Source: Syntrophorhabdaceae bacterium (GTDB taxonomy: Bacteria > Desulfobacterota > Syntrophorhabdia > Syntrophorhabdales > Syntrophorhabdaceae). Taken from it: 64,000 nucleotides of DNA. How positions within the stretch are numbered: position 1 is the stretch's first letter; each line of letters begins with the position of its first letter. The stretch is from NCBI GenBank assembly GCA_963665295.1, contig OY762209.1, positions 3,072,001-3,136,000 of the forward strand, read 5' to 3'. Below, in pieces: positions 27,771-42,454 of this stretch. A model generated the notes under the pieces. That model was not told the DNA's origin. It ran no database searches and saw nothing but the letters and a program-made list of their open reading frames with translations. The position numbers and the translations under genes were made by a program.

Positions 27771-29174
27771 TCAGTCCCTTTGCCCCTTGGGCTCCATATG
27801 GGCGCCTATGGCAAAAACCATCTGGAGGTACACCTCGTGATTCGTTTCCGAACCACCGCCGTAGGCGGGATTCCCGCCGCCGGACCGGTCATAGTTGTAC
27901 TGCAGTCTGAACCGTGAATATTCGCTCGGGTTGAACTCCAGGGCTGCAGTCAGACGGTAGGGGTTGTGGAACCTTTGCGGTATTCCGGAGACGCTGTAGT
28001 CGCTGAGGAAAAGGTTGAGACGGTCATAACGCACGCCGATTCTCCATTTATCGACCTGATAGAGGGCCTGGATATATATGCCGTCTTGAGAGCGGGAGAG
28101 GTGGTCTATGGCATAGTTCGCCGTGTTCAGGAGATCGCCGGACTGGTTGCGCCGCATATATTCACCCTGAAGGGTGAGACTTCTCGTTTTCGAGGGCGCC
28201 CACGCGAAGAGGCACTCGAACCCGTACAGGGTCGAATCCCCACGAAAGAGGGTGCCGCCCGCCACAGAATCCGTTTCGGTTGAACCGTGTACCACGTAGG
28301 GGCCGAAGTAGATCTTTGCGGCTTCGTCGAATTTATGGGAGCCCTTGAGAAAACCCGTGAAAGCATGGGGCCCGCCGGAAGAATTCCGGTTGAACATAAC
28401 GTCGTTTTCGCCCTGGAGTGCCTCTACGCCGATGAGGGGCGAGAAGGGGAATGAAGGCCGGTATGTCAACTGGGCCCCCTTCTCCGTAATGCCGTCCCTT
28501 CCCGTGAACCCCCGGTATACGAGGGGAGCGTCGGCAAAGTCCCAATCGTGAGGATGGTTCTCATTATGGACACTGAAGTTGCTCCTGAACTTGCCGGCCT
28601 TCAGCCGCAGGTTTTCCGGAAGGGTTTTGGTGTAGAAGTACGCCTCTTCTATGGTCGATCCCTCTTCCTTGAACGACAGGACGCCGAAGAGGTCAAAATA
28701 CCTGTCCACAGGTGCGAAGAGGGCGATGGAAGCTTCATCGATATTGAAGCCCTTTGTCTGGTCGAGGCCGACACTGGAGTAGCCGGTAATGCCCCTGCTT
28801 TTGAGCTTTCTCTCGCTGACGTTCGAGGAGTAATAAAAGCTGTTAAGCACGAAGGTGACCGCAGGGTTCTTGACGTTTCTGAAGAAATCTCCCCATGCAC
28901 CCGACACCACGAGGCGGTTCCCCTCTTTCGCGTCCGGACCGTAGTCCGATTCAGGCGTGTAAAGGGTCGCCTCACCCGCGCTTTTGTCCGGGGCCTTCCC
29001 GGCGGCGGCCGTTTCTGTCCTTAGGCGATTGATAAGTTCACGCTGTTCCTCGATAGTCTTTTGCTGCTTCTTCAGTATTTCTTCGAGGACGGTCACCCGG
29101 GACTCCAGATCCGCAGAAAACGATGCCCCGGCGAAGAATAACAGCAAAACAGCGGCCAATATAAGCCGAATCAT
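27771..29174 (-). CDS. Outer-membrane beta-barrel, putative metal porin (family often annotated zinc-regulated OM receptor)
   Basis: Signal peptide, coiled coil, then GF...E..., EEAY, KAGKF...F...N..HPHDWDF.D.PL, FSRFRLQY-like and C-terminal IGAH motifs; AAGGAGG RBS. Confidence 0.7.
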   Translation of the reverse strand: MIRLILAAVLLLFFAGASFSADLESRVTVLEEILKKQQKTIEEQRELINRLRTETAAAGKAPDKSAGEATLYTPESDYGPDAKEGNRLVVSGAWGDFFRNVKNPAVTFVLNSFYYSSNVSERKLKSRGITGYSSVGLDQTKGFNIDEASIALFAPVDRYFDLFGVLSFKEEGSTIEEAYFYTKTLPENLRLKAGKFRSNFSVHNENHPHDWDFADAPLVYRGFTGRDGITEKGAQLTYRPSFPFSPLIGVEALQGENDVMFNRNSSGGPHAFTGFLKGSHKFDEAAKIYFGPYVVHGSTETDSVAGGTLFRGDSTLYGFECLFAWAPSKTRSLTLQGEYMRRNQSGDLLNTANYAIDHLSRSQDGIYIQALYQVDKWRIGVRYDRLNLFLSDYSVSGIPQRFHNPYRLTAALEFNPSEYSRFRLQYNYDRSGGGNPAYGGGSETNHEVYLQMVFAIGAHMEPKGQRD

Positions 29175-29266
29175 GATTCCTCCTTTCACGGTTCAAGCCC
29201 CAGGTTCCCTGCGGTTTCCCGGTTTCCCGAACCGTTCCCGCAGGGACACACGGAAGGCGATAAAAC

Positions 29267-29363: not shown

Positions 29364-29384
29364 AATAATGATAATCATTATCAT
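29364..29384. promoter_or_regulatory. Fur box
   Basis: AATAATGATAATCATTATC (29364-29382), 18/19 match to canonical; perfect 8-1-8 palindrome ATGATAAT-C-ATTATCAT at 29368-29384. Confidence 0.85.
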
Positions 29385-29465
29385 GATAGAATGATTATGT
29401 CAAGGGCAAATTGAGCCTGTCGGTATGGGGCCACATCTTTTGTGTAGTTTGTATCATTTTTTCTC

Positions 29466-29494
29466 TTGACAGAAATTAAGTCATACTTAATAAT
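29466..29494 (+). promoter_or_regulatory. Putative promoter with palindromic operator upstream of the XRE/cupin regulator
   Basis: TTGACA at 29466; perfect 7-3-7 palindrome ATTAAGT-CAT-ACTTAAT at 29475-29491; AT-rich -10 region. Confidence 0.55.
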
Positions 29495-29527: not shown

Positions 29528-30070
29528 ATGGACATCGGTCAGAAGGTCAGGCAAATGAGGGTAAAGAGAAACCTGAACATCAGGCAACTCTCGGACCTCG
29601 TGGAATGTACGCCCTCATTGATTTCTCAATTGGAGCGCGGCAAAACGGACCCGTCTATTTCCATGCTGAAAAGGATTGCAAAAGCCCTGGATGCGAATAT
29701 CGTTGATTTCTTCATGGAAAGGGTGGGGCTCGACGACGTGGTGACGGAGGCGAAGGACCGGGTCAATATTCAGCTAAAGAGGTGGGATGCCCACATACAA
29801 TCCCTCGTGAAGAATGTGACGAACAAGAAAATGCAGCCTTTCTACACGGTGATAAGGCCTGGGGGTGGCTCTCATGGGCTCTATTCCCATGATGGAGAGG
29901 AATTCGGTTTTATACTCAAAGGAGAGCTTGAGTTGATTCTCGATGATAAGGTACACAAGGTGCGAGCGAATGAGAGCTTCTACTTTTCCTCCCGGATTCC
30001 CCATAATTGGGGGAACACGGGCACGGAGGACGTAGTGGTCATATGGGTGATTACACCGCCCACTTTTTGA
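29528..30070 (+). CDS. XRE-family HTH regulator with cupin sensor domain
   Basis: N-terminal HTH (LISQLERG..DPSI..L..IA.AL); cupin H.GEE...G.L...F.S..PH. Confidence 0.92.
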   Translation: MDIGQKVRQMRVKRNLNIRQLSDLVECTPSLISQLERGKTDPSISMLKRIAKALDANIVDFFMERVGLDDVVTEAKDRVNIQLKRWDAHIQSLVKNVTNKKMQPFYTVIRPGGGSHGLYSHDGEEFGFILKGELELILDDKVHKVRANESFYFSSRIPHNWGNTGTEDVVVIWVITPPTF

Positions 30071-30203
30071 TGGGATTTTGAAGAAAGAAATGGGCAGGGC
30101 GCGCAAGGATGGGAGTGGCCATGGAGAAGGCGTTTAATTTAAGGGATATGGGAGTTGTCTGCGCCGGTTTGATGCGCGAGAATCAATATGAAGGAGGCTT
30201 CAA

Positions 30204-31691
30204 ATGGCGGTTCTGCCTGAAGTAGACAAGCACTATGGGAAACTGAAATTGTTCATTGACGGGAAGTGGGTGGAGCCTTCTTCCGGCGCGTATTTTGAGA
30301 CGACGAACCCGGCGACGGGCGAGGTTATCGCCGAGGCGCCGGTTGCGTCTCCCGGGGAAGTCGAAAAGGCCATTGCCGGCGCTCACGAGGCGTTCAAGAA
30401 ATGGCGGAACGTCCCTTTCAGGGATAGGACGAAGCTGGTATTCAGCCTGAGGGAGACCTTCGCGAGACACCATGAAGAGCTTGCAAGGGTTCTCGTGCAG
30501 GACCACGGATGTACCATCGATGAAGGGAGAGGCACCATCTCCCGATGCATGGAGAATATCGAAGCCGCGGGAAGCGCCATGTACAGCCTTTACAAGGGAG
30601 AGCATGTGGAGCAACTTGCCAACGGCATAGACTGTTACCTTATAAGAGAGCCCATGGGCGTGTTCCTTATCATAACGCCGGGAAACATCCCCATGCACGC
30701 ATGGTCGTCTTTCGTGCCCTATGCTCTTGCCACAGGGTGTACGGTCATAGTGAAGCCGAGCCGCCAATGCCCGGTATCGGCCGACGCCATGTTCAGAATG
30801 CTCGACGAGACGGGTTTCCCTCCCGGTGTGGCCAACCTGCTTCACATGGGGCCGGAGAGGGGGCTCAACAAGGTGATCCTGTCCGACCCCAGGGTAAAGG
30901 GCGTGGGACTCATCGGCTCGACGAGGGTGAGCAAGGAGTTGTTCGAGCTTTGCGGAAAATACGGCAAACGCTCTTCCCTGAACGGCAACGGTAAGAATTA
31001 CATCGTCATAATGCCTGACTGCAGTCTCGACGACGCGGTGCAATATATACTCCGAGGGTGCTTCGGCATGACGGGGCAACGATGCCTCGGCTCCGACAAT
31101 GTGGCGGTCATAGGAGAGACTGCGAGATATGAAGAATTGAAGGAGAAGCTGATCGCGGCTTCCAAGGCGATGAGGATAGGCTATGGCCTCGACGAGACCA
31201 CGGAGATGGGCCCTCTCACCACGAGTGAAGGACGAGAGAAGGTGTTCCGGTTCATCGAATCCGGACTTGAGGCAGGCGCCGTACTCCTCCTGGACGGACG
31301 CCTTGTGGCTGCGGAACTCGAAAAGGGTTATTTCATGGGTCCCACAATCTTTGAAGGCGTGACCACGGACATGCATATCGCGAGGGAAGAGGCCTTCGGC
31401 CCCATGTGCAATCTCCTGAGGGCCCGGGACCTTGATCAGGCGATAGAATGGATCAACGGGACAAACTACGGCCATTCCGCGTGCATTGTTACGGAAAGCG
31501 GGAAGAATGCCCGGAAGTTTATCAGGGAATGCGAAGTGGGTAATGTGGGCGTGAACGCGGGCATCCCTCAGCCGTACGCATTTTTCGGACTTGGGTCCAA
31601 GAAGGATTCCTTTTTCGGTAACTCCAAATCCAGGATGGATTCAGTGAAGCTGTTTCTCGATGAAAAGACGGTGACATTAAGGTGGGTGTGA
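30204..31691 (+). CDS. CoA-acylating aldehyde dehydrogenase (methylmalonate-semialdehyde dehydrogenase-like); candidate 2-formylglutarate dehydrogenase
   Basis: NPATGE, REPMGV, KPS, GST, GNGKNY in place of ELGGK, GQRC catalytic Cys, EEAFGP, GVNAGIPQP, K.VT.RW C-terminus typical of the MMSDH subfamily. Confidence 0.8.
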   Translation: MAVLPEVDKHYGKLKLFIDGKWVEPSSGAYFETTNPATGEVIAEAPVASPGEVEKAIAGAHEAFKKWRNVPFRDRTKLVFSLRETFARHHEELARVLVQDHGCTIDEGRGTISRCMENIEAAGSAMYSLYKGEHVEQLANGIDCYLIREPMGVFLIITPGNIPMHAWSSFVPYALATGCTVIVKPSRQCPVSADAMFRMLDETGFPPGVANLLHMGPERGLNKVILSDPRVKGVGLIGSTRVSKELFELCGKYGKRSSLNGNGKNYIVIMPDCSLDDAVQYILRGCFGMTGQRCLGSDNVAVIGETARYEELKEKLIAASKAMRIGYGLDETTEMGPLTTSEGREKVFRFIESGLEAGAVLLLDGRLVAAELEKGYFMGPTIFEGVTTDMHIAREEAFGPMCNLLRARDLDQAIEWINGTNYGHSACIVTESGKNARKFIRECEVGNVGVNAGIPQPYAFFGLGSKKDSFFGNSKSRMDSVKLFLDEKTVTLRWV

Positions 31692-31848
31692 GCAGTCTTT
31701 TTTCCGGCTTCCCGCCTTCGGCGGCGTGAACCGCTTCGCCGGCCCAGGGACCCGCCCGTGGCTGAAAAAGGGCAACGGAATCTGATATACTGTAAGGGCT
31801 TGGTTAAGAGCCGCATGCAGATGCGGAGACAAAAAGGAGGAGAGCGCA

Positions 31849-32931
31849 ATGTGTGAAGAATGTGAAGACCTTGGCAGAAGGAATTTTCTGAAGAGTGCTC
31901 TTATCGGCGGTGCGGCGGTGGGAATGGGTCTTTTCGACCATAACCTTCTTCTGGCGCAGAACACCAACATAAAATTCAGCACCTGGCATCCACCTGTCAG
32001 CCGGGAAGTAAGAACGGTATGGATACCCATGCTCGAAGAAGTGAAGAAGAAGAGCGGCGGCAAGGTGGGATACACCATGTACGCCGGGGCCGCTCTCGGC
32101 AAGGGACCGGAGCATTTCGACATTGTGGCGAAGGGCCTCTCCGATATGGGGTATTTTACCGCTACCTGGACCCCGGGCCGGTTCCCCCTTACCGATGTCC
32201 TTTCGCTGGCAGTTTGGGTGGACGGCAAAGATGTGGCGGCGGACATAGGGAATGCCGTATATCAGCGGGCGCTCAGGGATGAGTTCAAGAACGTGAAAGT
32301 GCTGGAGTTGAACGGCTGCATCCAGTCCTTTATCTGGACCAAGAAACCCGTTTCCAAAATGGCGGACCTCAAAGGCATGAAACTGAGGTCACCGGGAGGC
32401 CATCAGACCAACTATATCAAATCACTCGGAGCCGAGCCGGTTTTTATGCCCCTGGGCGACGTCTATATGGCTATGGAAACGGGAACGGTGGACGGTATCG
32501 TCACCTGCCCCCCTCTGATTCTCGCATATAAGCTTTTCGAAGTGGCCAAGTATGCGACGGTCCTCACCTTCGGGTGCGTCTCCGAAGGCACGGTCATGAA
32601 CATGAATAGCTGGAACAGGCTTCCCGCGGACCAGAAAAAGGTGGTGGAGGAAGTCTGCACCAATCCCTTCAAGTCGACGGGAGGGCTGGACAAGGGCGAT
32701 TATCAGGTCATTATGAAGGACATCCAGAAGTCGGGGGTCAAGCTTATCGACCTTCCGAAGCCTGAAGCCGAACTCTGGTACAAGAGTTTCCAGGACGTTA
32801 CCAGGAAATGGGTTACCGACCTCGAGGCGAAGAAGTTGCCTGCGAGAAGGGTCGTGGCCATAATGAACGAGGAATGTGAGAAGAGAAGGGTGAACCTGGT
32901 GGCTTGTCCGCCTGAATTTAAGAAGATATAG
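31849..32931 (+). CDS. TRAP transporter substrate-binding protein (DctP) with Tat signal
   Basis: GRRNFLKS Tat motif; PGRFPL, DLKGMKLR, LGAEPV.MP..DVY.A.ETG.VDG. Confidence 0.9.
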   Translation: MCEECEDLGRRNFLKSALIGGAAVGMGLFDHNLLLAQNTNIKFSTWHPPVSREVRTVWIPMLEEVKKKSGGKVGYTMYAGAALGKGPEHFDIVAKGLSDMGYFTATWTPGRFPLTDVLSLAVWVDGKDVAADIGNAVYQRALRDEFKNVKVLELNGCIQSFIWTKKPVSKMADLKGMKLRSPGGHQTNYIKSLGAEPVFMPLGDVYMAMETGTVDGIVTCPPLILAYKLFEVAKYATVLTFGCVSEGTVMNMNSWNRLPADQKKVVEEVCTNPFKSTGGLDKGDYQVIMKDIQKSGVKLIDLPKPEAELWYKSFQDVTRKWVTDLEAKKLPARRVVAIMNEECEKRRVNLVACPPEFKKI

Positions 32932-32941
32932 GAAGAGGCCC

Positions 32942-33436
32942 ATGGGCACCCTGAAAATTGTGAGAACGGTTATCGAAAAGGTTGTCCGGTTCTCCGGCAC
33001 GGTGGGGATGATATTCGTTCTCCCCCTGATGTTCCTCACTACGGCGGACGTGGTAGGAAGAGGTTTCTTCAACAAACCGATTGCCGGCACCTTTGAACTT
33101 TCAGAATACATGCTGGCCGTGATAATCCTGCTGGGCGCCGCCTATACCCAGCAGGTGAAGGGCCACGTGGCGGTCGATTTTATCACTTCCCGGTTTGCCA
33201 CGAAAACCCGGCTTATGTGCCAGATCGTGACCCTGGTGCTCAGCCTCTTCATCGTTACCCTGCTCGCATGGCAGGGTTTCAAGCTGGGAATAGAGGAGAC
33301 AGGCGTCACTGATCAACTGAGAGTGCCGCGGGCGCCTTTCAAAATGATGGTCGGCGTGGGAGGGGCCCTCCTGTGGCTTCAGATACTTTTCGACCTCATT
33401 GATACCATTACCAGCCTCAAGAGGAGGGAAACGTGA
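32942..33436 (+). CDS. TRAP transporter small permease (DctQ)
   Basis: Four TM helices; DV.GR..FN.PI.G..EL, GHV.VD. Confidence 0.9.
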   Translation: MGTLKIVRTVIEKVVRFSGTVGMIFVLPLMFLTTADVVGRGFFNKPIAGTFELSEYMLAVIILLGAAYTQQVKGHVAVDFITSRFATKTRLMCQIVTLVLSLFIVTLLAWQGFKLGIEETGVTDQLRVPRAPFKMMVGVGGALLWLQILFDLIDTITSLKRRET

Positions 33437-34740
33437 GTCCTGTTGCCATCGGAATCCTCGGCTGTGCCTTGCTCATGGTCCTCCTCTTTCTCGGGATGCC
33501 CATCACCTTCGTCATGATGTTTGTCGGCTTCATCGGCATATGGTCCCTTTCGGGACTGGACGCCGCCCTTCCCATCATCGCAAGCACTCTTTACGAAACC
33601 GCTGCCCACTACCCTTTCACCATAATCCCTCTCTTTGTCCTTATGGGCGGTTTTGCGGATAACTCCGGTATAACCACGAGACTTTACGACACTTTTGATA
33701 AATGGTTCAGGAGGCTTCCCGGAGGACTCGGTATCGCGACGATCGTCGCCATTGCGGGTTTCTCGGCCATCAGCGGGTCATCGGTGGCGACATCCGCCGC
33801 TTTTGCGAAGACGGTTATACCCGAAATGAGACGATATAATTATAGCCCGAAATTCGCGAGCGGTATCGTGGCGGCCGGCGCCACCATCGATTTTCTCATA
33901 CCCCCCAGTATCGGTTTTGTTGTATATGGCATGCTTACGGAACAATCCATCGGAAAACTTCTTATCGCGGGCATGCTCCCCGGACTTCTCCTTGCAGCGT
34001 TCTTCATCACGATCATTGTGGGATGGGTCAAGATAAACCCGTCCGTCGCTCCCGTGCCCCCCGGCCGGGTTACGTGGAAAGACAAGATCTTCGCCCTATG
34101 GGGCATGTGGGAGACGATACTTGTTTTCCTCATCACCATAGGGGGGATGTACCTCGGTTATGTAAACCCTACCGAAGCCGGAGGAATAGGGTGTATCGCC
34201 CTGTTTATCATCACCCTTCTGAAAAGGGAGCTTACATGGAAACAGTTTGTGGTCAGCCTTTACGAGACCACAAGGGTAACTTGCATGGTTATGTTTCTTG
34301 TGGCGGGGGCGAGCCTCTTCAGCTACTTTCTTGCCCTATCCACCATTCCGGCCGCAGCCTCGGCGTTTATCGGCGGCCTTGGTGTCTCCAAATATATTGT
34401 CCTCGCTATAGTGGTAGGTGTTTATCTTGTCCTCGGTTGCTTCCTTGACGCCGTCTCCATGATGGTGCTTACCATGCCCGTTATCTTCCCTGTTATGATA
34501 GGACTCGGGTTTGATCCCATATGGTTCGGGGTGGTCTGCGTGCTCATGATGAACGCGGGACTGATTACACCCCCTGTGGGCCTCAATGTGTACACTATTG
34601 CAGGCATTGTGAGGGATGTGCCCATGAAGGAGGTCTTCAAAGGCGCCACGCCCTTCCTTATCGCCATTCTTGTAACGACGGTCATTCTTACGGTGTTTCC
34701 CGTAATTGCGACCATATTGCCGGCGCAAATGGGACGTTGA
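33433..34740 (+). CDS. TRAP transporter large permease (DctM)
   Basis: IPLFVLMG, SGSSVA, LIPPS, PTEA, TPPVGLN. Confidence 0.93.
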   Translation: MSPVAIGILGCALLMVLLFLGMPITFVMMFVGFIGIWSLSGLDAALPIIASTLYETAAHYPFTIIPLFVLMGGFADNSGITTRLYDTFDKWFRRLPGGLGIATIVAIAGFSAISGSSVATSAAFAKTVIPEMRRYNYSPKFASGIVAAGATIDFLIPPSIGFVVYGMLTEQSIGKLLIAGMLPGLLLAAFFITIIVGWVKINPSVAPVPPGRVTWKDKIFALWGMWETILVFLITIGGMYLGYVNPTEAGGIGCIALFIITLLKRELTWKQFVVSLYETTRVTCMVMFLVAGASLFSYFLALSTIPAAASAFIGGLGVSKYIVLAIVVGVYLVLGCFLDAVSMMVLTMPVIFPVMIGLGFDPIWFGVVCVLMMNAGLITPPVGLNVYTIAGIVRDVPMKEVFKGATPFLIAILVTTVILTVFPVIATILPAQMGR

Positions 34741-34765
34741 CAGGCGTCATACCGGGAAGGGGATC

Positions 34766-35239
34766 ATGAAAGAGATAGTATTTACGTTGAACGGAAGATC
34801 GACGGTTGCCCGGGTCGAAGATAATGAGACCCTCCTTCAAACGCTGAGAAAGCGCCTCTCCATAAAGAGCGTGAAAGAGGGCTGCTCTATAGGGGAATGC
34901 GGGGCCTGTACTGTATTGATCGATGATGAAGCCCATTATGCATGCCTCACTCTCGCTTCAAAGGTGGACGGCCATGATGTGAAAACGGTGGAATTCCTGG
35001 GCGTTGAGAATGTCCTTCACCCGCTTCAAAAGGCCTTCGTCCATTCAGGGGCGGTCCAGTGCGGGTACTGCACCCCGGGTATGCTGCTCTCCGCATACAG
35101 TCTTCTCAGGAAGAACAGCACCCCTGATGAGGAAGAGATCAGGGAAGCCATAAGCGGCAACCTGTGCCGGTGCACAGGATACATTCAAATCATAGAGGCT
35201 GTGAAATATGCTGCCGGAATTCTTAAGTCAGAGGGCTGA
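34766..35239 (+). CDS. Molybdenum hydroxylase 2x[2Fe-2S] subunit (NdhS/CoxS-like)
   Basis: GCSIGECGACTV...C, QCGYCTPG, NLCRCTGY. Confidence 0.93.
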   Translation: MKEIVFTLNGRSTVARVEDNETLLQTLRKRLSIKSVKEGCSIGECGACTVLIDDEAHYACLTLASKVDGHDVKTVEFLGVENVLHPLQKAFVHSGAVQCGYCTPGMLLSAYSLLRKNSTPDEEEIREAISGNLCRCTGYIQIIEAVKYAAGILKSEG

Positions 35240-36044
35240 TACCAGGGAACAGGCAGTCGCTTTGCTGTCCTCACTGGAGGACGTGTCGGTGCTTGCAGGC
35301 GGCACGGACCTGCTTGTCAGGATGGGACGAGGCGAGACACACAGGCACATCGTCGATATCACAAATATTCCGGACCTTCGCACCATCGAACAGGAGGACG
35401 GCACTCTTTACGTGGGTAGCCTGATCACTCACCGGGCGATCCACATGAGTCCCTCGATCAGGGAAGGTGCGCCAAGCCTTTCTGAAGCATGCGGGTTGGT
35501 CGGATCTCCCCAGATAAGGAATATGGGAACCATAGGCGGTAATCTTGCGAATGCGTCACCTGCTGCCGACAGTCTGTCTCCCCTGTTGATACATGATGCC
35601 CGTATCGTACTTGAATCGACAAGAGGAAAAAGGACGGTCGGGTTGGAGGACTTTATCACCGACCCTTACCGGACATCCATGCGAAGTGATGAACTGCTTG
35701 CCTTTATTGAAATCAATGGGCTTAGGGGTTACAGAGAAGGGTACCAACGCGTTGCGAAGAGAGCGACGTGGGCTATATCGAGACTCTCCGTGGCATGGGC
35801 GGTAAAGGAAGAAAACGGATGCTATCAGGATGTGCGCCTCGCCATCGGGTCGTGCACTCCCATGCCGTTCAGGCCGCGGGAAGTAGAGCGATTTCTGGCG
35901 GGAAAAGAGAAGAGTGTCCGTGTTCAGGGAGAGGCGGTAGCCATGATTGTTGGCGGAATAAGGCATGCAAGTGGGGACAGACCTTCCTTTGCGTACAAGA
36001 TACCTGTCCTCGAGGCGCTGCTCGATGAGATACTGAGGGGTTAG
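35208..36044 (+). CDS. Molybdenum hydroxylase FAD subunit (NdhF/CoxM-like)
   Basis: LAGGTDL, QIRNMGTIGGNLANASPAAD. Confidence 0.92.
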   Translation: MLPEFLSQRADTREQAVALLSSLEDVSVLAGGTDLLVRMGRGETHRHIVDITNIPDLRTIEQEDGTLYVGSLITHRAIHMSPSIREGAPSLSEACGLVGSPQIRNMGTIGGNLANASPAADSLSPLLIHDARIVLESTRGKRTVGLEDFITDPYRTSMRSDELLAFIEINGLRGYREGYQRVAKRATWAISRLSVAWAVKEENGCYQDVRLAIGSCTPMPFRPREVERFLAGKEKSVRVQGEAVAMIVGGIRHASGDRPSFAYKIPVLEALLDEILRG

Positions 36045-36047
36045 ACG

Positions 36048-38201
36048 ATGCGCGTAGGCATGGATGCAGATAGGGTAGGTGTACTCGACAAGGTACGGGG
36101 AAAGCCCGTCTTTGCAGGGGACATGGACATGGCGGGGATGCTTTACGGTTCAATCTACAGGTCCACGAGACCCCACGCACTCATCAGGGCTATCGATGTC
36201 TCCGACGCCTTGTCTCTCCCCGGAGTGACAAGGGTGATAACCTGGAAAGACATTCCCGGCGAGAACTCTTTCGGCATAATGAAGAAAGACCAGCTGTTTC
36301 TTGCGGAAGACAGAGTCCGCTGCGTGGGAGAGCCGATTCTTATCGTGTTGGCGGAAAGCGAAGAGATTTCACGAAGGGCCCTATCCCGGGTAAAGGTGAC
36401 CTACGAGGATATCGAGGCAATTCATGATCCTTTTCATGCACAAAACACGTCGGTCCTGATACACGGCGAGGGCAACCGGCTTTGCCTTAGAACGCTGGTA
36501 AAAGGTGACGTGGAAAAAGGGTTTAACGAATCCGACCTGATTGTGGAGCATACATACGGTACCACATGGGTCGACCATGGATTTCTCGAAACGGAATCGG
36601 GCATCGGGTGGATAGACGAGAACGGGAAGATCGCGATAAACTCGTCCACTCAGAACACGCACTACAAAAGAAGAGAGATTTCCCGGCTCCTTCAGATCCC
36701 CGAAGACCGGTTAAGAGTGATACAGGCGGTTACGGGGGGAGGCTTTGGAGGTAAGCTGGATATGACCGTAGAGGGCTATATAGCCCTTTCCGTCTACCTT
36801 ACGGGCAGGCCTGTCTCAATTCGCTATACGAGGGAAGAGAGTTTCCTTTCAAATACCAAGAGGCATCCCCTTTCCATCCGATACAGGACCGGATTCAATA
36901 AAGACGGCCGGATTATGGCGGTGAGCGCCAACGTTGTGGGGGATACAGGCCCCTATATTTCATACGGAGAGGTGGTCTGTCTGAGGGTTGCGATCCACGC
37001 GACCGGTCCCTATGAGGTGCCGAACGTGCATGTCGAGAGCAGGATGTTCTACACGAATAACCCTGTCTCAGGCGCCATGAGGGGCTTCGGGATTCCGCAG
37101 CTTGCATTTGCCCACGAGTCCCAGTTGGACGAGGCGGCAGCAAGGCTCGGCGTCGATCCCCTTGACATGAGAATGAAAAACGCCTTGAGGAGGGGTTCTC
37201 TTACTGCAACGCAACAGGTTCTCGAACACAGCGCGGGGTTTCCGGAAACCCTGAAAAAGATCGAGCCCTTCTGGAGGGGCAGGAGGAAGAAAGATAAGGG
37301 CGCAGGGTTCGGGCTCGGATGCATGTTTTACGGGATAGGCAACACGGGATCATCCAACCCGTCCCATTGTTACGTGAGGCTTACCGACGACGGTAAGATC
37401 GCTCTTCATTCAGGGGTTTGCGACATCGGGCAGGGTTCTGATACCGTGTTGTGCCAGATACTTTGTGAGACCCTCAATGTGCGACCGGCGGATGTAGTGC
37501 TTGCTCCATGCGACACCGATATCTCGAAGGACGCGGGCTCGTCATCGGCCAGCCGGCAGACCTACATATCGGGACGGGCAGTCTATGAAGCCGCTCTGAA
37601 AATGAGGTCGTATCTCGACAAGGCCGGCTTCTACAACGGGCTTGATCTCAAGGATGTCTATAGCTCCGCAAGAGACCGCGGGGAGATTCAGTTCGAAGGG
37701 GATTTCGATCCCCCCACGACAGCAGTAGACAATATGACCTGTAAAGGGACGCCTTACGCCACCTATGCCTTTGCGACCCACATGACGGAGGTGCGCGTGG
37801 ATGAACGAACCGGCTCATGCAAGGTAACCAGGGTGTATGCTTCCCATGATGTGGGCAGGGCGATAAACGCGAAAAGTGTGAAGGGGCAGATTTACGGTGG
37901 AATAGCCATGGGTATAGGCCTGGCCTTGATGGAGGAGTTTATCCCTTCCAGGACGAAGTCCTTAGACAATTATTACATGCCCACATCCATGGATATGCCC
38001 GAGGTGGAGATACTTCTCGTGGAAGACGAGGAGCCCACGGGCCCATACGGCGCAAAAGGAGTCGGTGAACCCGCCCTGATCCCTCAGGCGGCGAGCATCA
38101 TAAACGCGATAAGCGATGCCGTAGGGGTGAAGGTCTATCAGCTCCCCTGTCACATAGAAAGACTAAAAAGGCTTATAGAGGACGGAAAGTCCGGAAAATA
38201 G
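36048..38201 (+). CDS. Xanthine-dehydrogenase-family Mo subunit; probable nicotinate dehydrogenase large subunit (single chain)
   Basis: GGGFGGK, GAMRGFG, DIGQG, ASRQT, QIYGG, AKGVGEP motifs; substrate inferred from adjacent enamidase and Hnr genes. Confidence 0.8.
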   Translation: MRVGMDADRVGVLDKVRGKPVFAGDMDMAGMLYGSIYRSTRPHALIRAIDVSDALSLPGVTRVITWKDIPGENSFGIMKKDQLFLAEDRVRCVGEPILIVLAESEEISRRALSRVKVTYEDIEAIHDPFHAQNTSVLIHGEGNRLCLRTLVKGDVEKGFNESDLIVEHTYGTTWVDHGFLETESGIGWIDENGKIAINSSTQNTHYKRREISRLLQIPEDRLRVIQAVTGGGFGGKLDMTVEGYIALSVYLTGRPVSIRYTREESFLSNTKRHPLSIRYRTGFNKDGRIMAVSANVVGDTGPYISYGEVVCLRVAIHATGPYEVPNVHVESRMFYTNNPVSGAMRGFGIPQLAFAHESQLDEAAARLGVDPLDMRMKNALRRGSLTATQQVLEHSAGFPETLKKIEPFWRGRRKKDKGAGFGLGCMFYGIGNTGSSNPSHCYVRLTDDGKIALHSGVCDIGQGSDTVLCQILCETLNVRPADVVLAPCDTDISKDAGSSSASRQTYISGRAVYEAALKMRSYLDKAGFYNGLDLKDVYSSARDRGEIQFEGDFDPPTTAVDNMTCKGTPYATYAFATHMTEVRVDERTGSCKVTRVYASHDVGRAINAKSVKGQIYGGIAMGIGLALMEEFIPSRTKSLDNYYMPTSMDMPEVEILLVEDEEPTGPYGAKGVGEPALIPQAASIINAISDAVGVKVYQLPCHIERLKRLIEDGKSGK

Positions 38202-38224
38202 GAAAGTAAAGGAGGAGCCGCCTG

Positions 38225-39370
38225 ATGGGAACTCTCGCAATCAGAAATATCGGTGTAATATTCACGGGTGATATTGATAATCCCCTCGTCGAAGGTCCTG
38301 TCTCCATATTGGTTGACGACGGAAGGATAAAGCGCATAGACAAGCAGGCCCTTGAGGCTGAGAAAGTCATAGACGCCAGGGGTATGACTGTGTGCCCGGG
38401 ACTTATCGACTCTCACTCTCATCCTGTATTCGGCGATTTTACCCCACGTCAGAATATGCTCGGTTTCATCGAGAGCGGCCTCCACGGCGGCGTAACGAGC
38501 ATGATATCGGCGGGTGAGGTCCATCTTCCGGGGAGGCCTACCGACCCCAAGGGCACGAAAGCCCTTGCCCTCCTCGCGCAAAAGTCTTTCGCCAAACTGC
38601 GGCCGGCAGGTGTGAAGGTGTATGGCGGCGCGCTCATACTCGAGAAGGGGCTCAGGGAAGAGGACTTCAAGGAACTCTCGGAGGACGGCGTCTGGCTTGT
38701 GGGTGAAATAGGCCTCGGCAGCGTGAAGGCGGCGGAAGAGGCCCGGGTCATGGTTGACTGGGCCAAGAAATACGGCATGAAGGTGCTCATGCACGTGGGC
38801 GGGACTTCGGTGCCCGGCAGTTCCACCGTTACCTGCCAGGACGTGCTTATCGCAAACCCGACCGTGGCGTGCCACTTGAACGGCGGACCGACCGCCATCC
38901 CCGTGGAAGAAGCGGAAAGGGTGATCCGTGAGACGCAATGCGCCATCGAGATCGTCCATTGCGGTAACCCGAAGGCGGCCATGGAGATCGTGGGGATCAT
39001 GAAGTCCGCCGGCATGCTCCACCGGCTCATCATTGGAAACGACGCCCCTTCCGGCACGGGGGTCATTCCCCTTGGCATCTGGAGGATGATCAATTTTGTA
39101 TCCGCTCTTTCGGCAGTCCCCGCGGAAACCGCGGTATGCCTCGCCACAGGGAATACAAAGAGGGTGTTTTCGCTCCCCCACGGTCTTGTGAGGGAAGGGG
39201 AAGATGCGGACCTGCAGATAATCGACGCACCCATGGGTTCCGCGGGCAAGGACGCGAAAGGCGCGATTGAGGCGGGAGACATCCCCGGCATAGCCATGGT
39301 GATTATCGATGGTGTGGTGAAGGCCCAGGTAAGCAGGAATACACCGCCGCCCGTGCGGAAGACCGCGTAG
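38225..39370 (+). CDS. ena: Enamidase (1,4,5,6-tetrahydro-6-oxonicotinate amidohydrolase)
   Basis: Amidohydrolase D-x-H-x-H; long stretches matching the recalled E. barkeri enamidase: LHGGVT.MISAG..H.PGRP, GTKALA, RPAGVKV.GGA.ILEKGL, GGTS.PGSSTVT, H.NGGPTAI, GNDAPSGTG.IPLG, GDIPGI, SRNTPP. Confidence 0.92.
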   Translation: MGTLAIRNIGVIFTGDIDNPLVEGPVSILVDDGRIKRIDKQALEAEKVIDARGMTVCPGLIDSHSHPVFGDFTPRQNMLGFIESGLHGGVTSMISAGEVHLPGRPTDPKGTKALALLAQKSFAKLRPAGVKVYGGALILEKGLREEDFKELSEDGVWLVGEIGLGSVKAAEEARVMVDWAKKYGMKVLMHVGGTSVPGSSTVTCQDVLIANPTVACHLNGGPTAIPVEEAERVIRETQCAIEIVHCGNPKAAMEIVGIMKSAGMLHRLIIGNDAPSGTGVIPLGIWRMINFVSALSAVPAETAVCLATGNTKRVFSLPHGLVREGEDADLQIIDAPMGSAGKDAKGAIEAGDIPGIAMVIIDGVVKAQVSRNTPPPVRKTA

Positions 39371-39439
39371 GGCCGTGAACCCGGTTCTTTTCCTTCCATT
39401 CTTATGAAGCGTTGAGACAGGTTTGAGAGGTGTCTTGAG

Positions 39440-40963
39440 ATGAAGATAGACCTGGAGAAGTGCAAGGGTTGTGGGCTCTGCGAGGAAGTCTGCCCCCTGG
39501 GGGTGATTACCGTGGAAGGGCGCAAAGTGCAGATAGGCGAAGGATGCGTTGACTGCAAATCGTGCACGAAGGTATGTCCCCAGGGCGTTCTGACACCCGA
39601 AGCACCGGACAAACGGACCTCCTGTGACGCCTGTCCCATCATGTGCGCCATTCCGGAAGGATTTTATGGGGCTTGCCTTCGCTATTTCAACGAGGGCGGG
39701 CAGATAAAGAGAAAAGGAAGGATTCACACCTATGAGGAGGTCGAAAACCTCATGAGGTCGGAGGGTGATAAAACGATAGGAAGGCCGCTTATCACCGGTA
39801 TCGGTTCAGGTACTACCTATCCTGACTTCAGGCCCTCGCCGTTCATCGTGAGGGGTGTCCGGGACGGAATAGATATCGTGACGGTAGTGACCGAGGCGCC
39901 TCTCAGTTACAGCGGGGTGAAGATGAAGGTGGATACGGACCTTTACCTTGGGGAGGAGGGCAGGAAGGTCTTTGTACGAAAGAAGGGGAAGAGACATATC
40001 GGTCATTTGTGCACCGAGGAATATGGCTCAAAGATGCTTTCCATGGGGGGTGTCAATATCCTTACCTCCAAAGACGGCATGTTCGCGGCAAAGGTCCTCT
40101 TCGATTTTTTGAAGGGCAAGAAGATCAAGGTTGAAATCGAGGACGGCCCCACCCTTGAATTGTCCCTCGGAAAAGCGCCGAAAGTCAACGGAGTATCGGA
40201 AGAGCATATGAGGGTGGGGTGCGGCAGCGCGGTTTCAGGCCTCTTTGCCCCCTACATGATGAAGGCGGCGGACGAGGTGATCGTCCTTGACGGTCATATC
40301 ACCGGATTGTTCAGCGAGCACCCTTCGGGGAGGTATCTCAGGAAGACCCGGTCGGCCGTTTCCATCAAAGGCCGGAAGAGTACGGAGGGCAGATATTTTC
40401 TGGACAAGGGTACGGGATGGGGCGGCACCAATATAGAGGAGCCCCTCGACGTGGTCGGAGAAATCGACCCTGCCCGGTGTGCCGAGGGCATGACCCTCCT
40501 TATTACGGAGACCACGGGACGGAAGGCGGCATTCTTCAGGCTGAAGGACGGGCAATTTGTTGAAGATCAGCCCACTCCGGCGGCGACGGAGTTTCTCCTG
40601 ACCCTTAGAGACTCCTGTGAGGACTCGAAGGTGAGCGCCGTATTTGCGGCAGGTGTCGGCGGCTCTGCAAGGGCGGGGGTGACCAGGAACCCGGTGAAGC
40701 TTACGCGGGCGGTCCACGCCGGGAAGGTGTCCATCTCCATAGGCGGGGCGAAACCCTTCATCTTTCCAGGTGGCGGGATCAATTTTCTCGTGGACCTGGA
40801 AAAAGTGAAATATGGCAGCATCTACCTTTCGCCGACCCCCTCCTTCATTATCCCGGTAGAATATACGATGACTCTCGAAACCTTCGAGGAAATAGGGGGA
40901 CACTTGGACGCCCTCAGACCTTTGGAGGAGGTGTTGAAACCGGATGCTTCCGAGGGAGAGTAA
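39440..40963 (+). CDS. hnr: 6-hydroxynicotinate reductase
   Basis: Two CxxCxxCxxxCP motifs, CDACPIMC...GAC, VTVVTEAPLSYSG, TEEYGSKM, MR.GCGSA, GGSAR, PGGGINF.VD, PVEYTM, GGH. Confidence 0.92.
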   Translation: MKIDLEKCKGCGLCEEVCPLGVITVEGRKVQIGEGCVDCKSCTKVCPQGVLTPEAPDKRTSCDACPIMCAIPEGFYGACLRYFNEGGQIKRKGRIHTYEEVENLMRSEGDKTIGRPLITGIGSGTTYPDFRPSPFIVRGVRDGIDIVTVVTEAPLSYSGVKMKVDTDLYLGEEGRKVFVRKKGKRHIGHLCTEEYGSKMLSMGGVNILTSKDGMFAAKVLFDFLKGKKIKVEIEDGPTLELSLGKAPKVNGVSEEHMRVGCGSAVSGLFAPYMMKAADEVIVLDGHITGLFSEHPSGRYLRKTRSAVSIKGRKSTEGRYFLDKGTGWGGTNIEEPLDVVGEIDPARCAEGMTLLITETTGRKAAFFRLKDGQFVEDQPTPAATEFLLTLRDSCEDSKVSAVFAAGVGGSARAGVTRNPVKLTRAVHAGKVSISIGGAKPFIFPGGGINFLVDLEKVKYGSIYLSPTPSFIIPVEYTMTLETFEEIGGHLDALRPLEEVLKPDASEGE

Positions 40964-40986
40964 TACCCGCCCCGCGGGTCCGGAGC

Positions 40987-41925
40987 GTGAGGGCGGGAAG
41001 GGAAGCCGGCAAGCCCACGGGCATTTGCGCCCCTATCCGGTCTTGTCCTCCAAGGCGGTTCGCCGTGCTGATTGAGGTCGGTCCGGCTAGCATTGTGGTG
41101 ACAGGATACAGGGACGGGAAGCCCCTGGAGTTCAACAGGAAAGAGATAGAGGGCTGTCTTACCGGAGCGTTGACCGATGTGAGAGATTACCTCCCTGTGT
41201 TGAGGCAGAAGGGCTACAGGATCAAAAAGCCCTCATCCATGCCGGGAGTTGCCATGAGAATGGCCGAGGCAGTAAAGGCCGTAGACGAACTCACCCTGAC
41301 GCCCATGGCGGCAGTGGCAGGGGCCGTGGCCGACGTTGTGAAGGAACGGTTGAAGGAGGGCGCTGATTTTATTTCAGTCAACAACGGCGGCGACATATCG
41401 GTCTTCAACTGCTCGGGCAGAACGCTGCGAATAGGCATCGGCGATATAGGAAGGGCCGAGGCTGCCCCCCGCGTTTTGGGGATCAGGGGACTTATTGACT
41501 ATGGGCTGGCAACGAGCGGGTTCGGCGGGCGGAGTTTTACCCTGGGCCTGGCCGACACGGTAACTGTGGTCGCCCGAACGGGGGCGATTGCCGATGCGGC
41601 AGCCACCTTGATCTGTAATAAGACAAACGTCGAAACCGACCATGTGGTACGGAGGAAGGCGGGTGAGATAGACCCTTGCTCGGACATTGCCGATGAATGG
41701 GTTACGGTGCGAATAGGAGACCTGGATGACCGCCTTATAGAGGAGGCGCTTCAGAGGGGGCTCGCTTCGGCCCTGGCGTTGAAGGGGCGTAATCTCATCG
41801 TTGATGCCGTAATAACATTGAGGGGTCAATCGGTCGGCACCCTGGACGGAAGCGAAAACATATATATGGAGGGAGAGAATGGAGATAAGAAAGCTTGTTA
41901 CGATTGTGGAGGATATCTTCGCTGA
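40987..41925 (+). CDS. UPF0280 / ApbE-like protein (putative FAD:protein FMN transferase); start uncertain
   Basis: TPMAAVAGAVAD, NNGGDI, GLATSGFGGRSFTLGLAD.VTV, ADAAATLI.N. Confidence 0.82.
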   Translation: MRAGREAGKPTGICAPIRSCPPRRFAVLIEVGPASIVVTGYRDGKPLEFNRKEIEGCLTGALTDVRDYLPVLRQKGYRIKKPSSMPGVAMRMAEAVKAVDELTLTPMAAVAGAVADVVKERLKEGADFISVNNGGDISVFNCSGRTLRIGIGDIGRAEAAPRVLGIRGLIDYGLATSGFGGRSFTLGLADTVTVVARTGAIADAAATLICNKTNVETDHVVRRKAGEIDPCSDIADEWVTVRIGDLDDRLIEEALQRGLASALALKGRNLIVDAVITLRGQSVGTLDGSENIYMEGENGDKKACYDCGGYLR

Positions 41926-42454
41926 CGGCGAGAAGAAGATGGAACAGCCGGTGAGGAAGGTGGCAGCGATTGCGGTCATAAAGAACCCCTGTGCAGGTGA
42001 GTACCGGGAGGACCTTGCCGAGCTGACCGACAACGGGGACGAATTGGGAAAGATCCTGGGTGAAAGGGCAGTGGCGGCGCTGGGCGCGGGAAAGGCGGCG
42101 CAGAGCTATGGCAAGGCCGCGATAGTAGGGGAGAAAGGTGAGCTTGAACACGCGGCGGCGTTGCTCCATCCGAAACTTGGAACGCCCTTGAGAAATGCGG
42201 TGGGCGGCGGCAAGGCCATAATACCATCGGTCAAGAAGCTGGGAAGGATGGGGGACGAGATAGACATTCCCCTTCATTTCAAGGACGCTGCGTTCGTCCG
42301 TTCTCATTTTGACGGCATGACTGTATCCGTAAATGATGCGCCCAAATCGGACGAAATCCTCGTGGCGATCGCGGTGACCGATGGAGGGAGGCCTCATCCG
42401 AGAGTCGGGGGGCTGAAGAAGGATGAAGCTAAAGGAGAAGACGGCCTAAGATAA
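41879..42454 (+). CDS. AA_synth (DUF1185) family protein, function unknown
   Basis: IRK......E, AVIKNP.AG.Y, SYGKAAIVG..GELEH.AA..HP, D.PL.FK.AA..RSHFD, DAP..DEI, GRP.PRVGGL. Confidence 0.82.
   Translation: MEIRKLVTIVEDIFADGEKKMEQPVRKVAAIAVIKNPCAGEYREDLAELTDNGDELGKILGERAVAALGAGKAAQSYGKAAIVGEKGELEHAAALLHPKLGTPLRNAVGGGKAIIPSVKKLGRMGDEIDIPLHFKDAAFVRSHFDGMTVSVNDAPKSDEILVAIAVTDGGRPHPRVGGLKKDEAKGEDGLR

Follow-up and report, generated by a model that had tools for sequence, protein, structure and literature searches.

We favor, with somewhat better than even confidence, a reading in which a 12-gene operon imports nicotinate and opens its ring to 2-formylglutarate and ammonia, and a methylmalonate-semialdehyde dehydrogenase (MMSDH)-like aldehyde dehydrogenase (ALDH) then converts 2-formylglutarate to glutaryl-CoA and CO2. 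The sequence-based part of this reading draws on gene order, family membership, closest solved relatives, active-site residues and co-occurrence. A wider proposal, held tentatively and at slightly under even chances, is that in Desulfobacterota the THON pathway has a third exit, namely a 2-formylglutarate dehydrogenase that is CoA-acylating and decarboxylating, arose at least twice by recruitment from the MMSDH family and yields glutaryl-CoA in one step. If right, this would be a new enzyme activity, explaining how nicotinate degradation is completed in anaerobes that lack the B12-dependent Eubacterium barkeri branch. Nicotinate use by sulfate reducers would also gain the genetic basis it has lacked, and in about half of Syntrophorhabdia niacin would serve as a syntrophic, methanogenic substrate. 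About half of this class and about one-sixth of the sampled phylum genomes are predicted to take part, in sediments and digesters, in recycling the pyridine ring of NAD and niacin.

The cluster and its probable upper pathway

The cluster spans 29528..42454 of the window (the whole stretch of DNA analysed, 64,000 nucleotides). All 12 ORFs are on the plus strand, to which the gene coordinates below refer, with intergenic gaps, in gene order, of 133, 157, 10, -4, 25, -32, 3, 23, 69, 23 and -47 nt. Their Pfam families in the same order (HTH_3 and Cupin_2; Aldedh; DctP, DctQ and DctM; Fer2 and Fer2_2; FAD_binding_5; MoCoBD; Amidohydro; Fer4; a weak ApbE match; AA_synth) agree with the labels of a preliminary description, which had recognized a co-oriented, mostly abutting gene set. 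The same 12-gene order is kept in 23 of 39 loci of relatives (a set that excludes L081, a distant paralogous hnr locus), and the arrangement is therefore not due to chance. The entire 14 kb is recovered as a single contig with zero differences in two of four sequencing runs, possibly those from which the assembly itself was made. The 12 genes form a genuine, unbroken cluster. The flanking genes are fur and a secreted protein on the minus strand at one end and bamA at the other; fur and bamA had been named correctly, whereas the supposed outer-membrane porin is the secreted protein, which has no Pfam or NCBIfam match. An Rfam search of the window gave no match, and a terminator scan gave background level only.

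Uptake of nicotinate would depend on a TRAP system, replaced in one family by a LIV-type ABC system. It consists of the solute-binding protein DctP (31849..32931; PF03480), the small permease DctQ (32942..33436; PF04290) and the large permease DctM (33433..34740; PF06808; TIGR00786 above cut-off). DctP is 75-95% identical across 26 relatives, with the highest median identity in the cluster, and its ligand is likely nicotinate.

Conversion of nicotinate to 6-hydroxynicotinate would be carried out by an NdhS-like 2x[2Fe-2S] subunit with eight Cys (34766..35239; Fer2 and Fer2_2), an NdhF-like FAD subunit (35208..36044; FAD_binding_5 and CO_deh_flav_C) and a molybdopterin subunit (36048..38201). 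The last is a single 717-aa chain equivalent to E. barkeri NdhL plus NdhM, which are split in that species; its top PDB match is 3hrd_A (E 1.9e-110) and that of its C-terminal part is 3hrd_B (E 6.9e-56). Residues Q202, Y306, R313, Y428 and E674 are kept and correspond to Q208L, Y312L, R319L, Y13M and E289M, active-site residues of E. barkeri Ndh; all 56 aligned Desulfobacterota cluster copies share Y306, R313 and Y428. Three yqeB genes and tRNA-Sec in the genome are compatible with a Mo=Se active site, without pointing to it.

The reductase Hnr (39440..40963), identified by named homologues, carries a 2x[4Fe-4S] domain at its N terminus plus another four conserved Cys, and would form THON with its own ferredoxin domain, possibly after flavinylation by the ApbE-fold UPF0280 protein. 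It is 82% identical to a protein that its source labels 6-hydroxynicotinate reductase and about 40% identical to an annotated plasmid Hnr, and its 12 Cys (8/11/14/18, 36/39/42/46 and 62/65/69/79) are invariant in 24 of 24 sequences. The predicted structure has a pLDDT of 88; matches of the full-length model come via the ferredoxin domain alone, and do not demonstrate a new fold. The enamidase (38225..39370) would release NH3 and 2-formylglutarate. It matches 2vun_A at E 5.9e-128, with the second-best PDB match far weaker (3.7e-10), is encoded by a single-copy gene, and retains H64, H66, E161, H190, H217 and D273, presumably the ligands of the binuclear metal center. Among solved structures, the Mo-hydroxylase and the enamidase are thus closest to the E. 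barkeri nicotinate enzymes, and the nicotinate-type upper pathway of the preliminary description is upheld.

Two accessory genes lie 3' of hnr, as in THON-type clusters. UPF0280 (40987..41925; PRK04334, below cut-off) probably starts near 41065, about 78 nt downstream of the longest-ORF start, because homologues align from residue 25-27. Its model matches 2o34 (E 6e-11) and many ApbE/Ftp chains in Foldseek, making it a candidate flavin transferase for Hnr; in 3 of the 39 loci the gene does not accompany hnr. The ApbE target motif is given as D-x-x-S/T-G-A-S/T in the available text of PMC12052999. By-eye inspection of Hnr did not spot this motif, and an invariant Thr126 lies within a G-x-G-T-T stretch. 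The AA_synth (DUF1185) protein (41879..42454; PF06684) matches 2qtp at E 4e-69 and had no usable match in the ESM Atlas.

An MMSDH-like dehydrogenase as candidate exit enzyme

The 495-aa ALDH (30204..31691) is predicted to be a decarboxylating, CoA-acylating 2-formylglutarate dehydrogenase. Its best 10 PDB matches are MMSDHs throughout, and R114, N161, R293 and C294 are invariant in 36 of 36 orthologues, with Asn260 at the position of the hydrolytic Glu. We assume that C294 is the catalytic Cys, N161 the oxyanion Asn, and R114 and R293 the Arg residues binding the malonate carboxylate. As 2-formylglutarate is malonate semialdehyde with a substituent at position 2, it would be turned into glutaryl-CoA by the MMSDH reaction (NAD+, CoA, carboxyl loss), and lack of the hydrolytic Glu makes it likely that glutaryl-CoA is formed directly, with CO2, in a single step. 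Compared with MMSDH (TIGR01722; 5TJR, 4ZZ7, 1T90), the catalytic Cys, the oxyanion Asn, the two Arg and the missing hydrolytic Glu are shared, whereas Asn stands at the Glu position and the substrate channel has invariant Ile162, His165 and Ser169 in place of Phe, Met and Trp, a change that would make room for a carboxyethyl side chain. The score of 372.8 bits on TIGR01722, below the 448.5 cut-off, weighs against this assignment.

Co-occurrence with Hnr provides strong genomic support for the predicted exit to glutaryl-CoA, although the genomes counted are related to one another, so that the counts lack independence. Among 96 genomes of Syntrophorhabdia, an ALDH orthologue accompanies Hnr in 47 of 49 and occurs in 4 of the 47 that lack Hnr; among 401 genomes of the phylum, an MMSDH-like ALDH is found in 63 of 68 Hnr-positive genomes and 21 of 333 others. 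The clade of the window's ALDH occurs in 50 of the 401, of which 47 are Hnr-positive. An MMSDH-like gene lies within 15 kb of hnr in 49 of the 68 Hnr genomes, belonging to the window's clade in 38 and to a second clade in 11, so that two separate clades, as defined by a quick tree only, occupy the slot. The sole second-clade ALDH scanned, that of L126, passes TIGR01722 at 470.7. The window's clade is not restricted to nicotinate, because G044, a genome with neither Hnr nor enamidase, has an 88%-identical ALDH in an unrelated operon (TctCBA, iso-Asp-dipeptidase-like, DHDPS-like and flavin reductase genes), and G007 has a 60% copy in the same operon type. The earlier proposal of a module ending at glutaryl-CoA is therefore strengthened by the ALDH-Hnr association while remaining a prediction. 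With direct CoA acylation, free glutarate would presumably not have to be activated, a saving of about one ATP equivalent that counts for organisms near the energy limit.

Predicted fate of glutaryl-CoA and alternative readings

The host genome (5.5 Mb, single contig, 98% complete) encodes the expected glutaryl-CoA sink outside the cluster. A non-decarboxylating glutaryl-CoA dehydrogenase (Gdh)-like enzyme and glutaconyl-CoA decarboxylase would lead from glutaryl-CoA via crotonyl-CoA to acetate. The GcdA orthologue is clear (E 1e-223), whereas the Gdh-like gene (E 3e-105) scores 427.7, below the NCBIfam cut-off of 470, and 7 of the 49 Hnr-positive class genomes gave no GcdA match, both of which weigh against the favored reading. 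With dsrA as the marker of respiration (DsrC proved uninformative), 20 of 49 carriers, the host genome among them, have no detected dsrA; nicotinate use in these would likely be syntrophic, and electrons would exit as H2 or formate. An NADH-dependent [FeFe] hydrogenase A6 is present above cut-off; RnfC was not found in the genome, which weighs against the favored reading with respect to low-potential electron supply for Hnr.

It is hardly credible, and for the host genome largely refuted, that the flux runs through an E. barkeri lower branch (Hgd, Hmd, Mgm, Mii, DmdAB, Dml) located outside the cluster. Pfam and genome-wide domain scans found no lower-branch genes inside the cluster, and the genome-wide search likewise agrees with their predicted absence: Mii/PrpF (PF04303) gave no match, the same search being positive in E. 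coli and B. subtilis controls, and no dedicated Hgd or Hmd was found. The genome does have one generic beta-hydroxyacid dehydrogenase, one ICL-family lyase and two LeuC-like genes, but the first is unlinked to the cluster and has Hgd 3cky as its seventh match, the LeuC-like genes are in apparent biosynthetic operons, and the single IlvD is above the housekeeping cut-off. Compared by domain layout, none of 15 B12-binding matches resembles what we take to be Mgm, a long polypeptide carrying its B12 domain at the C terminus, and the three stand-alone B12 subunits all adjoin methylmalonyl-CoA-mutase-family genes. In favor of this reading, PrpF is present in 8 of 49 Hnr-positive relatives, beside LeuCD-like and ICL-like genes in four of five regions inspected. 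B12 matches were also seen, at the genome level, in five PrpF-positive relatives.

A rather unlikely route, yet one to be weighed, is prior decarboxylation of 2-formylglutarate, spontaneously or by AA_synth, to glutarate semialdehyde, with the ALDH then producing glutarate or glutaryl-CoA. AA_synth is present in all 39 class loci and in all five aerobic proteobacterial hnr loci inspected, none of which has an ALDH within 12 kb, a difference from the window that weighs against the favored reading, and no MMSDH-like gene was seen in 5 of 68 Hnr-positive phylum genomes. Against this route, the ALDH has no hydrolytic Glu but does have the two Arg presumed to bind the malonate carboxylate, and the slot is filled by two MMSDH-like clades, not by succinate- or glutarate-semialdehyde dehydrogenases. 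No decarboxylase activity of DUF1185 was found in the portions of the literature searched. The Azorhizobium route, reported to run via glutarate in the accessible part of PMC3511419, speaks for prior decarboxylation and against the favored reading. Use of another pyridine or N-heterocyclic carboxylate, such as a substituted nicotinate, with nicotinate as a side substrate or none, is improbable. The fused Mo subunit comes from a family of varied specificity with many paralogues in the genome, no close structure reveals the DctP ligand (best E 1e-28), and the ALDH clade serves another operon; nevertheless, nicotinate enzymes are the best solved relatives with pocket residues kept, and nicotinamidase-like genes recur in five related clusters (two above and three slightly below the PRK11609 cut-off). 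It is also decidedly improbable that the same chemistry serves nitrogen or trace-substrate scavenging with no syntrophic growth on nicotinate. TRAP systems are suited to low substrate concentrations, and the cluster has a patchy distribution (carried by 49 of 96 genomes and, within the largest genus, by 10 of 20), but the dedicated CoA-acylating exit and the glutaryl-CoA sink suggest carbon and energy use, and Desulfococcus niacini, a sulfate reducer of the same group, is nicotinic-acid-degrading by the title of its description (Imhoff-Stuckle and Pfennig 1983).

Known systems and proposed control of the operon

The nicotinate fermentation cluster of E. barkeri was reportedly described by Alhapel et al. 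in 2006. It comprises NdhFSLM (3HRD), Hnr, enamidase (2VUN), Hgd (3CKY), Hmd, Mgm, Mii, DmdAB and Dml, according to the available parts of the sources (PMC3511419, PMC9304392, PMC10331938). The FAD-type Ndh, the Hnr with ferredoxin domain, the enamidase and the active-site residues are alike, whereas the window has fused NdhL/NdhM and no detected lower branch, and adds the TRAP transporter, the XRE-cupin regulator, AA_synth and the ALDH. The cluster of Azorhizobium caulinodans and Bradyrhizobiaceae, as far as described in the accessible text, covers the first three steps with a transporter and two unknown proteins and runs to glutarate (PMC3511419). It resembles the window in its upper steps, transporter, two conserved unknowns, missing lower branch and C5 dicarboxylate exit, but its hosts are aerobic and the window's host is an anaerobe. 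In plasmid examples from proteobacteria, AA_synth is usually doubled, the transporter is of ABC type rather than TRAP, and 25 of 26 Hnr lack the ferredoxin domain found in the window's Hnr.

The preliminary description regarded nicotinate degradation in this lineage as undescribed. The trait is lineage-wide, as it proposed, but the novelty was overstated, because the upper-only pathway of Azorhizobium and the sulfate reducer Desulfococcus (Desulfocicer) niacini were already known; the latter also degrades nicotinate anaerobically and belongs to the former Deltaproteobacteria, although the window's genome lacks dsrA. No gene-level description of its nicotinate degradation was found in the literature, nor was syntrophic nicotinate use or the ALDH step found in print, in a search that did not reach key primary papers. 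The part that looks new is the exit step via the MMSDH-like ALDH.

The first gene encodes a 180-aa PuuR-like XRE-cupin regulator (29528..30070; HTH_3 and Cupin_2), found in 30 of 39 loci of relatives and likely an autorepressor. Upstream lies a candidate sigma70-type promoter, TTGACA-17 nt-AATAAT (29466..29494, plus strand), which matches 11 of 12 consensus positions and is the best among 14 sites scored. Between its -35 and -10 boxes is a palindromic operator candidate, TTAART-N3-AYTTAA (29476..29490, no strand assigned), to which the regulator likely binds, thereby probably repressing the operon from within its own promoter. With up to one mismatch allowed, the palindrome is present in 39 of the 44 upstream regions (shuffles expect 0.47), a count made in the sequences from which the consensus was built, after an earlier, stricter pattern that matched just 2 of 44 was revised on inspection of the sequences. 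TTGAC precedes the palindrome on its 5' side in most relatives, and nowhere else in the 5.5 Mb genome is the pattern matched exactly.

Cluster layout and the likely enzymes of ring opening

The 12-ORF cluster of the preliminary description was confirmed: its ORFs occupy 29528-42454 of the + strand, mostly abut one another and belong to the Pfam families as labelled. The genome is one 5.5 Mb contig (completeness 98.1%) in which the enamidase, Hnr (6-hydroxynicotinate reductase), UPF0280 and AA_synth genes are single-copy. The sources of close homologues label them Syntrophorhabdaceae or Syntrophorhabdus, which would place the host in the class Syntrophorhabdia. The cluster region forms one contig with zero differences in two of four sequencing runs, both of which are possibly the source of the assembly. 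A secreted protein encoded upstream (27771-29189), with no Pfam or NCBIfam match, precedes fur; upstream of its gene is a GATAAT/ATTATC palindrome (~29365-29390) that resembles a Fur or Zur box.

Comparison with the Eubacterium barkeri enzymes supported the proposed assignments. In a PDB search, the enamidase gene product has 2VUN, the enamidase of E. barkeri, as its best match (E 5.9e-128), with the runner-up at 3.7e-10, and all six positions that we take to be metal ligands are retained. The best PDB match of residues 1-405 of the 717-aa Mo subunit is NdhL and that of the remainder is NdhM, indicating that this protein is an unsplit NdhLM. It retains equivalents of Gln208L, Tyr312L, Arg319L, Tyr13M and Glu289M (numbered from alignments), which we assume to be active-site residues; Tyr, Arg and Tyr at the second to fourth of these are retained in 56/56 aligned Desulfobacterota cluster copies. 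Hnr (39440..40963) is 82% identical to a protein named 6-hydroxynicotinate reductase by its source, and has 12 invariant Cys residues, 8 of them in a ferredoxin domain. The Hnr core beyond residue 90 was modelled with confidence, and two fold searches, both run with the whole model, found no match to it.

Nicotinamidase-like genes sit within five related clusters (two above the PRK11609 cut-off, three slightly below), providing separate support for the substrate, and a 54% homologue is present elsewhere in the window's genome. These inserted genes, at L047:3747-4496 and in the relatives' loci L124, L126, L129 and L134, have apparent N-terminal signal peptides by eye, which suggests periplasmic deamidation ahead of uptake. 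Judged from sequence, the module is by each feature examined a member of the upper nicotinate pathway that proceeds via tetrahydro-6-oxonicotinate, and its substrate is very probably nicotinate.

UPF0280 has an ApbE fold, and E. barkeri Hnr carries a covalent flavin; UPF0280 may attach such a flavin to the cluster Hnr. UPF0280 is absent next to hnr in 3/39 loci, and no canonical flavinylation target motif was seen in Hnr. RnfC was not found in the window's genome; one possibility is that the hydroxylase would pass low-potential electrons straight to Hnr, whose own ferredoxin domain would receive them. A 644-aa OYE-type (old yellow enzyme) flavin oxidoreductase is encoded upstream of ndhS in three related clusters (L119:15437-17371, L121 and L123), where the aldehyde dehydrogenase (ALDH) gene is non-adjacent. 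Two others (L135:6780-8117 and L136) are flanked by a gene for a fusion of a MobA-like nucleotidyltransferase with YqeC, which fits a Mo-hydroxylase that depends on selenium. For AA_synth, PMC2954203 describes a chorismate-mutase-like fold without known ligand.

The ALDH and a candidate exit to glutaryl-CoA

The best ten PDB matches of the ALDH (30204..31691) are all methylmalonate-semialdehyde dehydrogenases (MMSDHs), and the protein scores below the TIGR01722 cut-off. Arg114, Asn161, Arg293 and Cys294 are invariant in 36/36 orthologues, Asn260 occupies the position of the water-activating Glu of hydrolytic ALDHs, and the channel has Ile162, His165 and Ser169 where MMSDH has Phe, Met and Trp; the functional roles of all these residues are those that we presume. 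As 2-formylglutarate is malonate semialdehyde bearing a 2-carboxyethyl group, its conversion by the ALDH through MMSDH-type chemistry would give glutaryl-CoA.

Among 96 genomes of the class Syntrophorhabdia, the ALDH orthologue occurs in 47/49 Hnr-positive versus 4/47 Hnr-negative genomes, and two of these four contain cluster fragments at contig ends. In a sample of 401 Desulfobacterota genomes, for which three ALDH candidates were scored per genome and related genomes are not independent, this ALDH clade is present in 50 genomes, 47 of them Hnr-positive; any MMSDH-like gene occurs in 63/68 Hnr genomes versus 21/333 others, and lies within 15 kb of hnr in 49/68 (38 of this clade, 11 of a second clade). 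The second clade branches separately in a quick tree, and its sole member scanned is a true TIGR01722 protein.

Against this reading of the ALDH stand same-clade copies in an unrelated operon of two class genomes, 88% identical in G044 (L218:1435-9735) and 60% identical in G007 (L224:1818-11406). The G044 operon encodes an IclR-like regulator, TctCBA, an iso-aspartyl-dipeptidase-like hydrolase, a DHDPS-family lyase and a flavin enzyme, and the G007 operon is of the same type; neither Hnr nor enamidase was found in G044. An ALDH gene within 12 kb of hnr is present in 0/5 aerobic proteobacterial loci, which likewise counts against it. The MMSDH-like exit, the new element of the module, spans the phylum, was apparently recruited twice and has glutaryl-CoA as its likely product; the whole scheme of nicotinate uptake, ring opening and ALDH exit is somewhat favoured.

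The module differs from the aerobic proteobacterial nicotinate cluster in its linked ALDH and in the Hnr ferredoxin domain, which is absent from 25/26 plasmid-borne proteobacterial Hnr matches. The preliminary description knew of no account of pyridine-ring degradation as a syntrophic or respiratory trait of this lineage; in kind, however, such a module is already described. For Azorhizobium and Bradyrhizobiaceae, PMC3511419 reports breakdown via glutarate and a cluster that covers the first three steps and also encodes an ABC-type transporter and a pair of proteins of unknown function, so an upper pathway without the lower branch was known, and Desulfococcus niacini is, by a reference title, a nicotinic-acid-degrading sulfate reducer. 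The E. barkeri enzymes are summarised in PMC9304392 and PMC10331938. Nicotinate degradation is unmentioned in the Syntrophorhabdus genome announcement (PMC3916484) and, for Syntrophorhabdus, in the available part of PMC7382037; among the matches listed from our literature searches (40 of 80), none described the ALDH step or, for Desulfobacterota, a cluster of this kind, although an earlier account may exist.

Lower branch, glutaryl-CoA sink and physiology

A genome-wide search did not find the E. barkeri lower branch, none of whose genes lies in the window. No PrpF-family gene, and hence no Mii, was found in the 98.1%-complete genome; the single IlvD is of the housekeeping type, and one generic beta-hydroxyacid dehydrogenase is unlinked to the cluster, with Hgd ranking seventh among its matches. 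Of 15 B12-binding matches, 11 fall close to the N-terminus in proteins of 430-540 aa, three are free-standing subunits encoded next to genes of the methylmalonyl-CoA-mutase family, and the last is a protein of 260 aa; none has what we take to be the Mgm domain layout, the sole standard of this comparison. Also present, but scattered over the genome, are one gene for an ICL-family lyase and two that are LeuC-like. The module is not the full E. barkeri fermentation. PrpF, LeuC/LeuD-like and ICL-family genes form an operon unlinked to hnr in L225:3740-7611, L226, L227 and L228 of relatives, similar to the last part of the E. barkeri pathway (Mii, DmdAB and Dml); three of the four also have a TRAP system and an XRE regulator. 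One genus has PrpF in 7/7 genomes, including two that are Hnr-negative.

Both glutaryl-CoA enzymes sought elsewhere in the genome have candidates: a glutaconyl-CoA decarboxylase (GcdA) orthologue (1PIX, E 1e-223) and a glutaryl-CoA dehydrogenase-like gene closest to the non-decarboxylating type (3MPI, E 3e-105), below its NCBIfam cut-off. The latter adjoins ORFs resembling crotonase, 3-hydroxybutyryl-CoA dehydrogenase and thiolase by eye. GcdA is present in 83/96 class genomes and was not found in 7/49 Hnr carriers; five GcdA-negative genomes examined all have an orthologue of this glutaryl-CoA dehydrogenase-like gene at 80% or more. The acyl-CoA dehydrogenase at 18606-19784 scores better with acryloyl-CoA reductase and cyclohexanecarbonyl-CoA dehydrogenase models, below their cut-offs, and a glutaryl-CoA type was rejected for it.

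Syntrophorhabdia are known chiefly as syntrophs. dsrA was not found in the window's genome; it occurs in 43/96 class genomes and is missing from 20/49 Hnr carriers. The window's genome also encodes an NADH-dependent [FeFe] hydrogenase, which scores above its cut-off, and has three yqeB genes. The calculated balance of nicotinate degradation is nicotinate + 8 H2O to 2 acetate, 2 HCO3-, NH4+, 3 H2 and 2 H+. These gene distributions make both syntrophic and sulfate-/sulfite-respiring use of nicotinate plausible within the class, and carriers of the MMSDH-like exit likely include obligate syntrophs. In the largest genus, dsrA is present in 0/20 genomes.

Distribution and regulation

Hnr is present in 49/96 class genomes (19/26 genera) and enamidase in 47/96; in the phylum sample, Hnr occurs in 68/401 genomes, at least 8 of which are identical with class-set genomes. 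All 12 genes in identical order were seen in 23/39 loci, drawn from 39 of the 49 Hnr-positive class genomes; most others run into a contig end or, within a single family, have a LIV-type ABC transporter replacing TRAP. In metagenomes, 55 loci were found, and ALDH is present in 23/25 with at least 9 kb of upstream sequence.

The best sigma70-type promoter upstream of the cluster contains the palindrome TTAART-N3-AYTTAA, whose exact form occurs once in the genome. With at most one mismatch, the palindrome occurs in 39/44 upstream regions versus 0.47 expected from shuffling, a test that is partly circular because the consensus was derived from the same sequences.

In genome G030 (L056 and L223), a ~10 kb insert with a second Mo-hydroxylase, UbiD-family and TRAP-like genes splits the cluster between ALDH and dctP. 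Genome G092 has a second, distant hnr-ena-Mo-hydroxylase locus (L081:10448-17511; 35-41% identity) with an aspartate-dehydrogenase-like gene; its pocket residues are altered, and its substrate may be another heterocycle.
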